Below, in pieces: positions 23,287-29,343 of a stretch of DNA of 64,000 nt (position 1 is its first letter; each line of letters begins with the position of its first letter). The DNA is from Alphaproteobacteria bacterium. GTDB taxonomy: Bacteria > Pseudomonadota > Alphaproteobacteria > UBA828. A model generated the notes under the pieces. The model worked only from the letters and a program-made list of their open reading frames with translations. It had not been told where the DNA came from and did no database searches. Both the position numbers and the translations under genes were made by a program. The DNA lies in assembly GCA_963422645.2 (NCBI GenBank), contig CAXXVO010000005.1, forward strand, positions 256,001 through 320,000, read 5' to 3'.

Positions 23287-23425
23287 TGGTTTGCAGATAA
23301 TAACTTAGATAGTCCCGCCTCCCCCTGCCACCGTCCCCAAAGGCGGAGGGGGAACGCAGGGGGCGCCGCCCGTTCTCCCTCTCCGCCCCTGGGGGCGGAG
23401 AGGGCCGGGGTGAGGTGGGGGGCGG
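23284..23425. repeat. Palindromic GC-rich intergenic repeat, possibly a MITE fragment
   Basis: AT-rich end TAGTGGTTTGCAGATAATAAC followed by the hairpin CCCTCTCCGCCCC-T-GGGGGCGGAGAGGG and GGGGTGAGG, a motif type common in Alphaproteobacteria. Confidence 0.5.
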
Positions 23426-23545
23426 TCGCGCCGTCCAATGGCATTCATTTGGCGCGAAGATTGTTCCGGGGTTTTTTTGGTGGTGTCGTAACGAGTTGAT
23501 TTCTTGTGTGGATTGTCGGTCTCGGCGTTTCCCGCACGAGGGGGA

Positions 23546-23574
23546 TTGACCGGCGGCGTGTGCTTTGGCACACT
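23546..23574 (+). promoter_or_regulatory. Putative sigma70 promoter of the IS4-type transposase
   Basis: TTGACC-17 bp-CACACT, 31 bp upstream of the ATG at 23606. Confidence 0.5.
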
Positions 23575-23605
23575 GTGGCTGTCCCCCTGTCAGTGGAGCC
23601 GGCCC

Positions 23606-24323
23606 ATGGACCCCCGCATCACCGCGCTGAAGTCGACGACCTTTTTCGGCAGACGTCTGACCCGCCGGCAGATTGCCGACATCCAGGAGACGGTGGCGCT
23701 GTTTCCGGCGATCAGCCGCAACGAGCTCGGGCACACGATCTGCGAGCATTTGAACTGGCGCGCGCCGAGCGGGCGGAACCGTGTCGCGGTCTGCCTGCGG
23801 ATGCTGGAGGAGTTGGAGCGGCTGGGCATCCTGACCCTGCCGGCGCGGGACGAGGCGCAGGTGCGGGGGCCGCAGGAGGCGATGGCCCGGAGCGAGCGGA
23901 CGGCGCCGGCCGCGGCGATCGCGGAGGACCTGGCCGCGCTGATGCCGCTGCGCCTGTCGATTGCGGCGGGCAAGGAGGAGGGCGGGCTGTGGAACGAGTT
24001 CGTCGCGCGCCACCACTATCTCGGGCTGCATCGTCTGGTCGGCGCGCATCTGCGCTATTTTCTCCTGGACCGCCACGGGCGGCCTCTGGGCTGCCTTCTG
24101 TTTGCCCGGGCGTCGCGCGCGGTGCCCTGCCGCGACGAGTGGATCGGGTGGCCGGCGGAAGGCTTCCGCAAGCACCTCGATCTGGTCGTGGGTCACACGC
24201 GTTTCCTGATCTTTCCCTGGGTCCGGGTCGACAACCTGGCGTCGAAAGCGCTGTCGATGGCGCTGCGCCAGCTGCCCGGCGACTGGGAGGCGCGCTTCGG
24301 AGCGCGCCCGGTTCTGGTGGAGA
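23606..24323 (+). pseudogene. DUF4338-DDE transposase, 5' part (HTH plus DUF4338-like domain)
   Basis: SRNELGHTICEHLNW, LWNEFVARHHYLG, RDEWIGW, RFLIFPWVRVDNLAS and RPVLVE| ending at the insertion core. Confidence 0.88.
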
Positions 24324-24512
24324 TGAAGGCTTCATAATGCTTCTCCGTTGTGCAGGTGGGCGGGCGTTTCTACCGCATTGATAGAAAAGGCGGTTTGGAT
24401 TCCGTTGTTGCCGCCGCGGCGACCTTTACATCGTGCCGGACGTGATTTTCCAGTATCGCACGTTGGAGGTGCGGATCTGCATCGGGCGTTTTGCCTGACG
24501 GTCCGGGCATGG

Positions 24513-26693
24513 TCACCCCCCATCACCGTTGAGCCCGCGCAGCAGCGGCAGTTCGTCCTCGACCGGCAAACGCACATACAGTCCGCGCGTCTTGCCGCGG
24601 GTCACATGGCAGCTGTCCAGCCTGCCCGCCTTGATCCGTTCCCAGACCGTCTGCCGCGTGACACCCAGACGATCCATTGCCACAGCGAGGGGAACAAACC
24701 CCTCCGGAGGCGCCTCACGAAAGCGCTCGCGCAAGGTCGGGGTCATCCGGATCCGAAGAGGAGCACCTTCGATATCGGGCTGGGCAACCGGAACCAGCCC
24801 CTCGCGGATCCAGCGATAGATGGTGTCATCCGAGACTCCGATCTCCTTCGCCACATCGGCAACGCCCATGAGCACCGGCTCGTCCCCGTCGGGCTGGTAG
24901 GGCGCAATGCCATGGCGGCGACGCAGGCTGCCAACAAGCTCGGCCGTGAAATCCAGACCCCGTGCTGTGCGCCGTCCCTGGCGGGTGAGAACCTTCGCGG
25001 TCTCCCGGTCGTTGTAAAAGCATGACAGCTTGCGCACGAGCTCGACCGTGCTGCGCTCATCGCGCCGGGGTGTCGGAGAGCCCGCGAGCATCGGCAAAGT
25101 GATCTCGTCGATCTGCCCGCCACGCCAGCGCAATGTTGCCATGATCTCACGCTCCTGTCGCGCAAGCTCGATCGTCACCTCGTCGAGGAGGCAGGCGAGC
25201 AGGCGCTTGCGCTCGCGCATGGTCGTCGACGACGCCCCCCAGACCTGCGACAGGCGCGCGCCGAGACCCTCGAAAACCGCCGGGGCAGGGGCCGCGGGCT
25301 GACGCGCCCGTGCCGCCTCAAGCGCTTCCTGTGCAGCCTTCTCGGCGCGAAGCGCCTTCTCCCACTCGCGCTCCAGCGTTGCCGCAATCAGACGGTTGTC
25401 GGGATCGACCTGCTTGTAGCGCCGCTCGGCAAGCCGCGCCTCGTACCGGCAGTGCTCAAGATCCAGCTCCCAACGGCGCAACGCGCGCAGGCCGCGTTCA
25501 GCAACATCACAAGCCGCCTGCCGGGCCGCCTCCACCCCCGCCGGCGTGACCGCATCGAGAAACAGACGGGCAACTTCCGCATCAACGCGCTTGCCGCCTG
25601 TCGACCAACAACCGCCGCGCCGGCGCGCAGCATCGCGCTTGCGGCACTCATACCCCCAGCCCGTCTTGCTGTAGTAGACGGTCATCGGCAATCCGCAGCC
25701 GCCGCAGACCGCGAGACCCTGGAGCAGAGCCGACCCTTCCCGCGCCGCGCCGCGGGCTCCGTCCGGAGCCATGTGGTTGCGGGCCAGCTGCTCCTGTACT
25801 TCAAGCCATTCTGCCCAACTGACATATCCCTCATGCTTCTCCGGCTGAAGAATATCCCAGCGCTCCTGGACCGGCCGCAGCGGCGCACCGTGACCAACGC
25901 CGCGTTTGAAGCCGTAGGCATAGGCGCCGCCCATCGCCGGGTTGGTGAGGATGCGGTACACCCGTTCATAGCGCGCCGGGCCCCATTCCAATGCTGCCCC
26001 CGGGTGCCGGCGAGAGGGAACATCCTCGCCCGCCTCACGCAGCAGCATCGTCGCCTGGCGGGCCGAACCGGCTTGCCGAAAACGCGCAAAGACCGTTGCA
26101 ATCGCCGCCTGAACCCGGGCATCCGGATCCTTCCGCAAAGTCGAGCCATCCCGCACAAATCCGATCGGAACGCGCGAGTACAACTCGCCACGAAGCGCCT
26201 TGTTCCGCTTTCCGCCCTCCATCCGGGCGCGAATAAGAGACAGCTCAGCGGCGCTCACGGTTCCCTTGATCCCCAGGACAAGGGAGTCGTCGTCCCGGCT
26301 CGGGCAGTAGATGTGGCAGTCCTCAACCAGAACCGTGTCGTGCCTGCGACATAGATCGAGAAGCTGAAACCATTCCATCGTGTTCCTGGCGAGCCGCGAA
26401 ACCTCAATCCCGAAGATGCCCCCGACATGGTCCCGGGCGATCAGGTCGCACATCTCCCGAAAGCCGCCACGCTCGCCGCGCGCCTTCTCGCTTGCGCTCT
26501 CGCCAAGATCGGCGTCGATCGTCCGTATCCGCTCGGCCGGCCAGCCAATCTCCCGGGCACGCTCGCCAAGCGCGTATTGGCGCAGCTGCGATTCCTGGTG
26601 CGCGTTCACTTGCAAGGGTGTCGACTGGCGAACGTAGACAACTGCAAGACGCTCAAGATGACGCTGGGTGATCTTCGACGGATCGACCGTCAT
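24513..26693 (-). CDS. Large serine recombinase with zinc ribbon and C-terminal HTH domains
   Basis: VYVRQST (catalytic Ser), DLGES, EVSRLAR, LTNPAMGGAY, CGGCG...YEC...C, VDPDNRLIAATLEREW and two terminal HTH-like segments; GGGAGG RBS. Confidence 0.95.
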   Translation of the reverse strand: MTVDPSKITQRHLERLAVVYVRQSTPLQVNAHQESQLRQYALGERAREIGWPAERIRTIDADLGESASEKARGERGGFREMCDLIARDHVGGIFGIEVSRLARNTMEWFQLLDLCRRHDTVLVEDCHIYCPSRDDDSLVLGIKGTVSAAELSLIRARMEGGKRNKALRGELYSRVPIGFVRDGSTLRKDPDARVQAAIATVFARFRQAGSARQATMLLREAGEDVPSRRHPGAALEWGPARYERVYRILTNPAMGGAYAYGFKRGVGHGAPLRPVQERWDILQPEKHEGYVSWAEWLEVQEQLARNHMAPDGARGAAREGSALLQGLAVCGGCGLPMTVYYSKTGWGYECRKRDAARRRGGCWSTGGKRVDAEVARLFLDAVTPAGVEAARQAACDVAERGLRALRRWELDLEHCRYEARLAERRYKQVDPDNRLIAATLEREWEKALRAEKAAQEALEAARARQPAAPAPAVFEGLGARLSQVWGASSTTMRERKRLLACLLDEVTIELARQEREIMATLRWRGGQIDEITLPMLAGSPTPRRDERSTVELVRKLSCFYNDRETAKVLTRQGRRTARGLDFTAELVGSLRRRHGIAPYQPDGDEPVLMGVADVAKEIGVSDDTIYRWIREGLVPVAQPDIEGAPLRIRMTPTLRERFREAPPEGFVPLAVAMDRLGVTRQTVWERIKAGRLDSCHVTRGKTRGLYVRLPVEDELPLLRGLNGDGG

Positions 26694-26844
26694 CGGCCGC
26701 CTCCCGATCCGCAATCCGAACCATCAGATCGGCCAGACCCTGCACGACGCGATCCCGGTCCGGAGCCGGAAACGCCAGCCACCGGTCCCGGCGCTCCTCC
26801 CACTCCATCAGCGCGATCAGCGCCAACTCCTGCTCCGCATCCAT
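26653..26844 (-). CDS. Small helical hypothetical protein upstream of the recombinase (candidate accessory or directionality factor)
   Basis: 63-aa ORF with WLAFPAPDRDRVVQGLADLM, overlapping the recombinase start. Confidence 0.55.
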   Translation of the reverse strand: MDAEQELALIALMEWEERRDRWLAFPAPDRDRVVQGLADLMVRIADREAADDGRSVEDHPASS

Positions 26845-27148
26845 CGCGCCTGAGTTCCCTCTCATCAAGGTCATTCAGAAGATTAAGGAGGGTGAGGAAA
26901 TCAGACAACTCTCCGATCAGGCGTGGTGCATCCTCGGGACGGGCTCCAAGGCTCGTCCATGCCGCTGGTATCCAACAACAGCTGCCGTCCGGCATCCGAA
27001 CCTTCAGAGTCCGGCCCCCGTAACCTCCTTTGCGCCGATCGAGAATCTCGATCGCCTCACCGTCGAAAGGATGCTTGTAGCGTCGAATGCGAACGGGCTC
27101 AGGAGCCTCGGAAGCCTGCAAGATAGTAGTCTGTGACGTTCGTGGAGA
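26690..27148 (-). CDS. DUF5372 (Y4bD-like) small protein whose start codon lies at the opposite end of the element (24335)
   Basis: HPFDGEAIEIL...PDGSCCWIPAAWTSL motif; no RBS-ATG inside the integrated right end; in frame with ATG 24335 after circularisation. Confidence 0.7.
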   Translation of the reverse strand, partial: SPRTSQTTILQASEAPEPVRIRRYKHPFDGEAIEILDRRKGGYGGRTLKVRMPDGSCCWIPAAWTSLGARPEDAPRLIGELSDFLTLLNLLNDLDERELRRDGCGAGVGADRADGVGGAPGPVAGVSGSGPGSRRAGSGRSDGSDCGSGGGR

Positions 27149-28644
27149 CCTTCGTGGACCCCAGCCTCTTCGACGGCGCCTGCTACCGCGCGGCCAACTG
27201 GCGCTGTCTCGGCGAGACCGGGGGCGGCAAGGGCAAGACCCGCAAAAGCGTCTACGTCTACCCGCTGACGCCGGACTTCCGCTCGATCCTGCTCGAAGGC
27301 CCGCGGCCGGCGCGGCGCGGGAACAGGACACGGCCGGCAGCGCTGGCGCCGGACGATCCCTTCGTGGCGCTGTGGCAGGACCTGATCGGCGCACTGGCGG
27401 CGGTGGCCGCCGATCACGACCGGGTGTGGCAGAGCCGCCGGCGGGTCCTCGACACCCTTCTCGTCATGCTCTTCATCTTCCGGCTGGCGTTCTCGAACGG
27501 CCGCGCGGGCTACGCCACGACGCTGGCCGGGCTGTGGGAGCAGTGCCGGGTCCTGGGCGTCGCACTGCCGCAGCCGGCGCCGGTCTCGGCCTCGGCGATG
27601 TGCATGGCGCGGGCCAAGGTCGACGAGGCGGTGTTCAAGACGCTGCACGCCGAGATCCTCAAGCGCGCCGACGGCCCGGCCTGGAAGGGCCACCGCGTGT
27701 TCGCGGTCGACGGCTCCAAGCTCAACCTGCCGCGGCCGCTGCTCAAGGCCGGCTACCGCACGCCCTCCGAGGCGGCCCACTACCCGCAGGGCCTGCTGAG
27801 TTGCCTCTACCGGCTGCACGCGAACATCCCGGTGGACTTCGACCTGGTCGCGCACGGCGACGAAAGAAGGGCCGCCCTCGCCCACCTCAAGGCGCTCTCG
27901 GCCAACGACATCGTGGTCTATGACCGCGGCTACTACTCTTGGGAGATGCTGCACGCCCATGTCGCCCGCGGCCTGCACCCCGTGTTCCGGATCAAGAAGA
28001 AGGCAGGCGCCGCCCTCGACGCCTTCATCGCCGACGGCCGCACGGACGCGCCGATCACCGTCGCTCCCGGAAAGGACACCCTGAGAAAGCTGCGCCGCAA
28101 GACGCCGCACGTCGACGCCACCCCGCTGCGCCTGCGACTGGTCCGCTACCGCATCGGCAGCACGGTCTTCATCCTCGCCACCACCCTCCTCGACCCCAAG
28201 GCCTGGAGCGTCGCGGAACTGGCCGAGCTCTATCACGCGCGCTGGGGAATCGAGGAACTCTACAAGACCTCGAAACAGGCCATGGCCGTCGAGGCCTTCC
28301 ACAGCCAGACCGAGCGCGGCGTCCGCCAGGAGCTCTTCGCCCACTTCAACCTCATCGCCATGACCCGGCTCTTCACCAACCGCAGCAACGCAAGCCTCGA
28401 CGCCGAGCGCCCTGCCGACGGCAAGCCGGCGATGAAAGCCAACTTCAGCAACGGCCTCGCCACCGTCGCGCGCAACCTCGAAGCGCTGCTGCTGCGCCAT
28501 ACGGCGATGGTCGCCGAAACCCTCAGCCATGTCCTCTCCTGCATCAACCAGGCGCGTCAGCGCCCGCACCCCGGCCGGTCCTGCGAACGCAGGTCGCGCA
28601 AACCCCGCGGCAAGTGGGCACGCGCAAAGCGGGCCGTCGCCTGA
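27149..28644 (+). pseudogene. DUF4338-DDE transposase, 3' part (IS4-type DDE domain)
   Basis: TFVDP...GACYRAANW, FAVDGS, VYDRGY and YHARWGIEELYK (YREK signature). Confidence 0.9.
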
Positions 28645-28735
28645 ACACCTGAACGACAGAAACGCACGCAACCGACAGCGCAAGAACACGACTCCTTAAG
28701 TGAACAGTCGAAAACCGCTAAGTGAATGCCATTGG

Positions 28736-29343
28736 TCGGCGCCCAGGGTGTCGATCCCGCCCGCGAGCGTGACGAGTTCCGGCACCCAATTGCCGGCTGT
28801 CATGGGCGGGTCGCTCCATTCAACGGTGAGCACTCGCTTGGGCGGAAGCGCCTTGGCACGTTCGGCAATCGCGGCCACCCGGGCAAGCAAGCCCGCGCTA
28901 ACCGGTTGGGCATTGACGCCGAGGGCGTCACCCACGCGCGCGATATCGTCCCAGACGTCGCCGAGGCGCATCGGCGCGAGCGAGACGATCTGCACCGGTG
29001 CTTTCAGGAACTCTGCGGCTGCGGCCTCGACTTCGGGCAGGCCCACCGCGCAGACGTCGCACTGGTCCTGGGTGACGATGTGGCTCGGGCGCGCGGCGCG
29101 CAGGATCCCGGTATCGAGGTCGTAGAGGCTGAGCGCTGCGGCGAGCAGCTTGCCCACCTCCTCGTGAATCGCGCCGCTCGGCTTGCTCGCGTCAATCCTG
29201 GCGCGGGTGCAGGCCGGCGCCTCGGCAACCTCGGGCGGCCAGTCGCACTCGTGGCTGCGGTCGACGATGCTGTCCGCGAGCCCGAGCGCCGCGACGATCT
29301 CGGTCGCGCTCGGCACCAGCGAGGCGATGCGGAATGCGCTCAC
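28736..29343 (-). pseudogene. Cobalamin/iron-siderophore-type periplasmic binding protein (BtuF-like), C-terminus cut at the IS end
   Basis: RIASLVPSATEIVAALG, SHECDWP, TQDQCDVC, EWSDPPMTAGNWVPEL; the frame runs into the TIR. Confidence 0.8.

Follow-up and report, generated by a model that had tools for sequence, protein, structure and literature searches.

A cargo-less large serine recombinase element that appears to use a DUF4338 motif of insertion sequences as its attachment site

The window analysed here, a 64,000-nucleotide (nt) stretch of an alphaproteobacterial genome (assembly GCA_963422645.2, contig CAXXVO010000005.1, positions 256,001 to 320,000; C6:256001-320000 in our numbering of the source genome, G000), contains a discrete insert of 2,825 bp (24324-27148 of the window) in the transposase gene of an IS4-family insertion sequence (IS). 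The insert lies in the ETF codons of the N-terminal DruA/DUF4338 domain of that gene. In our view it is, with a probability of roughly 0.8, an autonomous, cargo-less and site-specific mobile element that moves by means of a large serine recombinase (LSR), resembles an insertion sequence in its behaviour and has the DUF4338 motif as its attachment site attB. The evidence comes from its anatomy (Table 1), its copy number, its constant site and orientation, the empty sites, its spread across genomes and a composite with a host IS that is present at two loci.

The left junction reads ...CCG GTT CTG GTG GAG A|TGAAGG (24308-24323|24324); past 24323 the DUF4338 frame of the plus strand enters TGAAGGCTTCATAATG... 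and meets a stop four codons on. The right junction (27148|27149) reads ...TTCGTGGAGA | CCTTCGTGGACCCC, the element end before 27148 being also given as ...GACGTTCGTGGAGA, then CCTTCGTGGACCCC. GTGGAGA is common to both junctions in the window, and the initial annotation of this DNA had spoken of a GTGGAGA-like preference. At the diverged targets elsewhere in the genome GAGA is all that both junctions have in common, and the crossover dinucleotide must therefore fall inside GAGA. The element makes no target duplication. The initial annotation had also predicted that removal of the 2,825 bp would rebuild one uninterrupted open reading frame (ORF) of 737 amino acids (aa). Indeed, 13 empty copies of the host IS carry exactly the predicted sequence, ...CCCGGTTCTGGTGGAGACCTTCGTGGACCCC..., without interruption, and the ORF of an intact copy (L044:2323-4533) encodes 737 aa. 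An intron or ribozyme reading of the insert was dropped because a scan against Rfam gave no match.

Table 1. Features of the host IS and of the recombinase element (window coordinates)
Feature	Position	Strand	Remarks
IS-A, IS4-family host IS	23436..28734	+	ends mapped against 13 copies; 2,474 bp when empty, 5,299 bp here
5' part of IS-A transposase gene (DruA/DUF4338)	23606..24323	+	interrupted behind GAG A in the ETF codons
Core GAGA, left junction (attL)	24320..24323	.	sole stretch in both junctions at diverged targets
Recombinase element, 2,825 bp	24324..27148	-	genes on the minus strand; core GAGA counted once, at 27145-27148
Outward-facing ribosome-binding site and start codon	24333..24346	-	GGAG, 7 nt, ATG (24335-24333), three codons to the element end
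Large serine recombinase	24513..26693	-	726 aa from ATG (733 aa from upstream TTG, 26714); Pfam, NCBIfam, PHROGs
ORF2, 73 aa, no known family	26653..26874	-	overlaps the recombinase start; conserved via synonymous changes in contig L071
ORF1, DUF5372-like small beta-barrel protein	26879..27148	-	frame reaches the last base of the element
Core GAGA, right junction (attR)	27145..27148	.	junction reading
3' part of IS-A transposase gene: DUF4338 end and IS4 DDE domain	27149..28644	+	sequence and Pfam

In the source genome the element was found at 12 insertion sites, as seven full-length copies, four copies interrupted or truncated by other ISs and one right-end fragment. Identity among the full-length copies is 99.9-100%: four match the window copy exactly, and two share a 2-bp insertion. 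All left junctions (11/11) and all right junctions (10/10) fall at one position and in one orientation in DUF4338-coding DNA of at least four sequence types, a clustering beyond chance. The initial annotation had proposed counting empty against occupied sites: the 12 occupied DUF4338 sites (seven in the window's host type, IS-A, and five in diverged IS66-type units) stand beside 16 empty ones (13 in IS-A, three in IS66-type units). The degenerate 12-nt target pattern has 38 further matches in the genome, none of which lies within DUF4338 and none of which carries the element.

The target flanks diverge right up to GAGA, e.g. ...CTCATCGAGA| versus ...CTGGTGGAGA|. At the diverged sites the left flank is ...CTCATCGAGA| and the right flank |CCTT(C/T)GTCGAGAC; the right half-site CCTT(C/T)GT(G/C)GA is conserved, whereas the left half-site varies widely among the targets in use. 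In this genome the DUF4338 domain is confined to other transposable elements, in which it is either part of an IS4-family fusion protein or encoded by a separate downstream ORF in IS66-family units. The initial proposal of a minimal serine-recombinase element with the DUF4338 ETF motif as attB thus agrees with all 12 sites here and with single copies in two other genomes; copies in unrelated targets, which it had named as the contrary outcome, were not found among these sites. The narrower claim that the target is one multi-copy IS gene is true of the ETF motif in IS-A, but has to be widened to the DUF4338 domain itself, which is also present in the IS66-family units.

The host in the window, IS-A, has terminal inverted repeats CAATGGCATTCA... 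(mapped on 13 copies) and generates perfect 10-bp duplications, which were found at nine of its ten empty full-length copies. Together with these traits, the match of the intact 737-aa product to NCBIfam NF033592 (156.9 bits versus a cut-off of 115) places it in the IS4 family. The copy in the window has its greater length because of the insert. Pfam recognizes DruA/DUF4338 on 23606-24337 (97.5 bits) and DDE_Tnp_1 on 27133-28644 (76.3 bits), and in all occupied copies the DruA match breaks off at profile position 178-179. It is plausible that the element inactivates the IS4-type transposase reversibly. An in-frame GTG at 27133, inside the right end of the element, starts a 503-aa frame through the DDE domain. 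Occupied IS-A copies could in principle still make a truncated transposase from this GTG, for which no ribosome-binding site is evident in the sequence.

DUF4338 is described as a GNAT-like domain in a section of a paper by Aravind's group (PMC10853773). Its association with IS4 transposases recurs outside this genome, since a DUF4338 gene and an IS4 transposase gene are neighbours in Candidatus Thiodictyon syntrophicum, on a plasmid where a later IS91 insertion separates them. Membership in the Druantia systems is not indicated: the DruA matches in the source genome cover profile positions 21-232 of 297 and lie within IS units (the druB-E neighbours were not searched for). When the best five matches per genome were scored, the DruA domain was found in 18 of 401 genomes of the class, and full-length matches (3-296) in four other genomes.

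The second host, IS-B, is an IS66-family unit. The copy at L041:3006-6537 (G000:C13:253005-256536) measures 3,532 bp and is bounded by 134-nt inverted repeats that are 99% complementary, and by an 8-bp duplication. These repeats are unusually long, and an 8-bp target duplication is typical for IS66. An 812-aa ORF of this unit contains DDE_Tnp_IS66 (PF03050, 197.6 bits), and DUF4338 is encoded downstream in another frame. The family assignment follows from PF03050, the inverted repeats and the perfect 8-bp duplication at three of three copies. In the IS66-type hosts the DDE gene is not interrupted by the element. The presence of DUF4338 in this unit, as well as its N-terminal fusion in IS-A, makes it look like a recurrent IS accessory module. 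Two descriptions of the diverged targets were discarded. A DUF4338 protein of 1,156 aa with a relaxase and an integrase as neighbours proved partly an overlapping-frame artefact, and the label "not DDE-associated" was wrong, the IS66 match of the 1156-aa ORF in the ESM Atlas being due to the overlapping genuine IS66 frame.

The IS66 unit with the element inside it was found twice, at C6:339315-345680 and C8:580323-601633. These composites are flanked by separate perfect 8-bp duplications (TCGCATGC and ATAGGGGT, respectively), which supports hitch-hiking. The two composite copies differ from each other by one mismatch in 3,070 nt, and from an empty copy by 67 in 3,071. In both of these "B" copies the 45 nt to the left of the junction are IS-A sequence, and everything farther out is IS66-unit sequence; we take this patch to be a conversion tract or the result of aberrant transfer. 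On these comparisons the IS66 unit has probably transposed with the element aboard, conversion between pre-existing sister IS copies being the less likely course of events. The earlier suggestion that the element could ride along with its host thereby receives indirect support for the IS66-type host, whose DDE gene is intact; the trans-mobilization of the IS4-type host that was part of that suggestion is not required. The C8 copy of the IS66 unit also contains a 13.9-kb insertion (G000:C8:583393-597282), at the flanks of which 9 nt of unit sequence overlap.

Outside the source genome, a scan of species representatives yielded one metagenome-assembled genome (MAG) of the Thalassobaculaceae and one of the Paracoccaceae, each with a single degraded copy of 92-94% nt identity. 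The check for split DUF4338 genes in relatives, which had been proposed together with the target, comes out in its favour: at the left junctions in the two MAGs a DUF4338 gene is cut behind ...LLAE or ...PVLIE, the same DUF4338 position, and in the Thalassobaculaceae MAG the right junction precedes TFVETPRY (TFVETPRYTGAVY). The flanks of the latter copy (L069, G061:C1:3504358-3511879) are chimeric, with an IS-A-like DUF4338 on the left (ARFGHEVLLAE) and the IS66-unit type on the right (TFVETPRY). The 7-nt flank CCTTCGT stands at the start of a metagenome contig that encodes an LSR of 74% identity, which is thinly consistent with the same target. In one sequencing run (X8) the Logan contigs contain an IS-A of ~98.8% identity, empty on one contig of 2,024 nt, and almost none of the element.

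The recombinase displays the domain order Resolvase, Recombinase, Zn_ribbon_recom (below threshold) and a C-terminal excisionase-like HTH_17, plus a second helix-turn-helix (HTH). The resolvase-type catalytic domain (PF00239, 62 bits, residues 24-177) includes the motif ...VVYVRQST..., and PF07508 passes its threshold with 41 bits. DUF4368, the domain by which the multi-targeting TnpX/TndX clade is recognized, is absent from the 13 Pfam hits. The protein does not belong to the IS607 family either (NF033518, 22.7 bits versus a cut-off of 110, the match being confined to the C-terminal HTH). The LSR gene is intact and identical in six of 11 copies and damaged in the other five.

Upstream of the LSR gene lie two small ORFs. 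A small ORF resembling ORF2 is annotated upstream of the LSR homologs on plasmids, and an ORF1 counterpart was found, using a profile built from five homologs, in 32 of the loci searched. PF17342 (DUF5372) matched 13 of 16 aligned ORF1 homologs at E<=0.01 (best 9.3e-21); ORF1 of the window scores 17.8-18.5 bits, below the cut-off of 25. The predicted model of ORF1 is a small beta barrel (mean pLDDT 75.8), for which a fold search returned only weak SH3/Tudor/chromo-like rows (E>=0.13).

In the integrated state ORF1 lacks an ATG, and its stop overlaps the ATG of the LSR gene as ATGA (26693-26690). When the ends of the element are joined in silico, the ATG of the left end comes in frame with ORF1. 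An ATG four to five codons before the junction and in frame with ORF1 was seen in all three elements with mapped ends, the one in the window and its relatives in G005 and G020 (36-39% LSR identity; shared cores counted once). The stop-free ORF1 frames of 14 of 16 relatives have no ATG ahead of the conserved domain, a weak indication in the same direction, as GTG or TTG starts are possible. Since ORF1 has its ATG at the other end of the element, it would be complete only in the excised circle, in which the LSR would then be well translated by coupling.

Our model of the element is as follows. Its attB would be the short stretch of DNA that codes for the (V/I/A)-E-T-F-V motif of the GNAT-like DruA/DUF4338 domain. 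The element would excise as a circle, and the LSR would join the attP of this circle to attB by a 2-nt crossover inside GAGA, with a fixed orientation of integration and no target duplication. In the operon ORF1 (DUF5372)-ORF2-LSR the ribosome-binding site and the ATG lie at the far end of the element, so that ORF1 would be whole only in the circle, and after excision the ATGA overlap would enhance LSR translation. Copies would spread by LSR-driven integration into new DUF4338 sites, defective copies being mobilized in trans, and also by gene conversion between copies and by hitch-hiking on the transposition of the host IS.

Several observations bear on how the copies spread. The occupied IS-A copies fall into at least two haplotypes of single-nucleotide polymorphisms, each of which is present among the empty copies as well, which points to repeated integration or excision. 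Two defective variants were each found in two kinds of target: an extra CG behind position 954 of the element, by which the LSR gene is split, in the target types that we label C and D, and G1093T, by which the same gene acquires a TAA stop, in one copy within IS-A and one of the IS66 type. Both mobilization in trans and gene conversion fit this distribution. The IS copy in the window has no matching target duplication; its flanks (23422-23435 and 28735-28748) match those of the copy at C5:333654-338952 crosswise. From the exchanged duplication halves (GTCGGCGCCC and TCGCGCCGTC) we conclude that two occupied copies recombined reciprocally and that the window locus is one of the outcomes.

A different account of these data is that the element is a decaying relic, which reached one DUF4338 gene once and then spread by homologous recombination or conversion and by transposition of the host ISs, with no ongoing LSR activity. 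It would explain the near-identity of the copies, the nonsense mutation common to copies in different hosts, the 45-nt IS-A patch that moved into IS66-type copies, the flanks swapped between two occupied copies, the composite at two loci with separate duplications and the five damaged LSR genes. Nevertheless, we consider it improbable. The C-, D- and E-type target flanks differ from IS-A directly outside GAGA on both sides, which would leave only 4-11 nt of homology for conversion. Moreover, six LSR genes are intact and identical, two other genomes use the same site amid yet other flank sequences, and the haplotypes of the occupied IS-A copies are those of the empty ones.

Two further explanations are much weaker still. 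The specificity could be relaxed as in the "GA" transposons of the TnpX/TndX type, insertions outside DUF4338 being lethal or lost; only GAGA is strictly common to the targets, the left half-site is highly variable, and a relative (G020, see below) is found in three unrelated flanks. We regard this as very unlikely given the 12 of 12 sites here and the two of two elsewhere that lie in DUF4338 in a single orientation, the conserved right half-site, the 38 empty matches to the degenerate motif, a genome that tolerates very many IS insertions and the lack of DUF4368 among the Pfam hits. That the insert is instead a domesticated intervening element, a controller rather than a parasite, whose regulated excision turns on the IS transposase (cf. 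the fdxN element with XisF and the skin element with SpoIVCA), is equally hard to credit: excision would restore the ORF precisely and the best NCBIfam match of the LSR is the XisF model (68 bits versus a cut-off of 375), but 12 copies in two unrelated IS families, an IS66-type DDE gene that is not split, copies transferred to and degraded in other genomes, and relatives that hit other mobile-element genes fit a selfish mobile element.

A number of observations weigh against a site-specific element that is moved by its own LSR. Joints from 24316 to 27142 that skip the 2,825 bp, with seven letters fitting either side, were found in the Logan contigs of three of the four runs examined; they probably come from other, empty IS copies, and the 13 empty copies can account for all of them. 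No joint leading back across attP, i.e. no direct recombination product, was seen in the contigs examined, which cannot reveal rare molecules. The initial annotation had noted dyad symmetry around GA at attB and attP. Some pairing is present, but it is weak and not convincing: with 25 positions per arm, attB has 7 pairs around the first GA or 12 around the second, attP 11 or 6, at a chance level of ~6, and the best center differs between the sites. The Zn-ribbon (PF13408) scores 24.2 bits, just under the cut-off of 25.3 (the LSR of the relative G005 passes with 33.9 bits), and a scan of the element and its vicinity for sigma-70-like promoters found none. Close relatives are rare: an LSR search of the 48 other genomes of the order gave no further copy, nor did one of 400 genomes sampled from the class (E<=1e-130; best two candidates per genome scored). 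The junctions of G020 have only the palindrome CG (2 nt) in common, which is unusual for an LSR. Lastly, the swapped flanks of the window and C5 copies indicate a homologous or site-specific rearrangement (inversion or translocation) between 5.3-kb repeats, and the near-perfect identity of the copies together with the IS-A patch points to homologous recombination or gene conversion at work on them, so that some of the "insertions" may be conversions and not LSR events.

The genome carries a very heavy IS load, from which the element itself is not exempt. A 2,511-bp IS with 81 near-full copies lies inside the element at G000:C5:27792-30302. Three insertions in the element or adjacent to it (G000:C5:30457-31506, C8:600124-601174 and inside C5:442014-444961) belong to another IS, of 1,050 bp and present in 19 near-full copies; two of these insertions are less than 30 nt apart, near element positions 2551-2585. 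The copy in the Thalassobaculaceae MAG is interrupted as well, at 2551-2559, and positions ~2551-2585 may be an insertion hotspot.

More distant relatives were compared for their targets, excluding from the counts G008, G009a, G009b and G011, in which the ends were ambiguous or the architecture was different. Congeneric genomes contain multi-copy LSRs of 36-40% identity. One of them, G005, has four copies of a 2.65-kb element, the LSR of which is 37% identical and has the same Pfam architecture. All four lie in rve/HTH_21 IS3-type transposase genes of two types, at YN codons with the core TTGTA; the insertion points lie between ...WIGF or ...SWRRH and ERPH... or VRPH.... G020 contains a related LSR element of 3.4 kb in three copies (L098, L099 and L100) with three unrelated flanks, which by eye, without confirmation by Pfam, are relaxase-like (SRNL|DPQLHTH), DEAH helicase-like and of no recognized kind. 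The closest LSRs on plasmids are ~41% identical, and a DNA search of plasmids with the element gave no match. No DruA match was found in the three plasmid records examined, and these plasmid relatives therefore do not share the target.

Judged from these loci, this LSR family may commonly target genes that belong to other mobile elements, and two cases of this are solid. As a tentative extension, to which we give somewhat less than even odds, modules of DUF5372, ORF2 and LSR could be widespread bare "recombinase insertion sequences", obligate parasites of mobile elements that share a start-codon-across-attP switch and ride on the transposition of their hosts. As part of the same tentative proposal, each lineage would home to a codon motif in a gene of an IS or conjugative element: ETF of DUF4338 here, YN of the IS3-type genes in G005 and possibly the relaxase in G020.

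Our literature search found no description of such an element; the target-gene Pfam enrichment tables that supplement PMC10083194 could list such targets. Transposons moved by large serine recombinases are a kind already known. Against the literature searched, four traits appear to be new: an IS-like element that is bare and has 12 copies, a target in the form of a domain motif common to two IS families, a gene that is split at attP and the evidence of riding on a host IS. If our reading is right, the element would clearly exemplify hyperparasitism in mobile DNA of the simplest kind, in which an IS-sized guest recognizes a protein-domain motif of two unrelated IS families. It would also provide a natural LSR with a defined and variation-tolerant attB, of interest for integrase tools, a compact expression switch within attP, and a first functional context for the uncharacterized DUF5372 and for DUF4338 in its role as an accessory domain of ISs. 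An IS-rich genome would be reshaped by guests of this sort, in combination with gene conversion and the swapping of flanks.

Among known systems, the clostridial transposons Tn4451/Tn4453 (TnpX) and Tn5397 (TndX) are alike in that an LSR acts as the "transposase", with excision as a circle and no target duplication; for the present element such a circle is predicted from its ends. The TnpX/TndX transposons have GA as the crossover dinucleotide, and in Tn4451 the circular form reportedly switches on expression of the recombinase. This has a parallel in the junction of the present element, which would supply the DUF5372 gene with a start codon and a ribosome-binding site; no promoter was found here. 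TnpX/TndX transposons carry resistance and mobilization cargo and have low target specificity, in contrast to an element without cargo and with a long target in one protein-domain motif. A section of PMC10083194 gives DUF4368 as typical of the TnpX/TndX clade. The present LSR lacks this domain, so the element works alike but is not a member of the clade.

Junction promoters of the IS911 type in IS circles, and SSV1-type integrases with attP inside the gene, are other cases in which a signal for expression or a whole gene, missing in the integrated form, comes together on circularization. They differ in that here the split gene encodes a small DUF5372 protein at the head of an operon, not the recombinase, and only a frame and a ribosome-binding site are joined. 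IS607 is likewise IS-sized and moved by a serine recombinase with an HTH_17/MerR-like DNA-binding domain. According to PMC4058570, its TnpA is small, with an N-terminal HTH and minimal target specificity, whereas the present LSR has the catalytic, recombinase and Zn-ribbon domains first and then a C-terminal HTH.

With regard to the target, there are parallels among LSR elements that use repeated or mobile elements. The ~10-kb prophage-like element phiRv1 of Mycobacterium tuberculosis, which is present once per genome, is said to integrate into the REP13E12 repeat. It too is an LSR element with attB within a multi-copy repeated genetic element and several alternative sites per genome; it differs from the present element, which measures 2.8 kb, has 12 copies and uses transposase-associated genes of two IS families. 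Streptococcal integrative and mobilizable elements with serine integrases target the conserved genes SNF2, PPI and traG of integrative and conjugative elements, as described in sections of PMC7168690. As there, a mobile element homes, through its serine recombinase, on a conserved gene of a mobile host and is carried along with that host (same sections of PMC7168690). In the streptococcal case, however, the hosts are conjugative and the guests carry cargo and mobilization functions, whereas the present guest is no more than a recombinase module, has insertion sequences as its hosts and multiplies inside a single genome.

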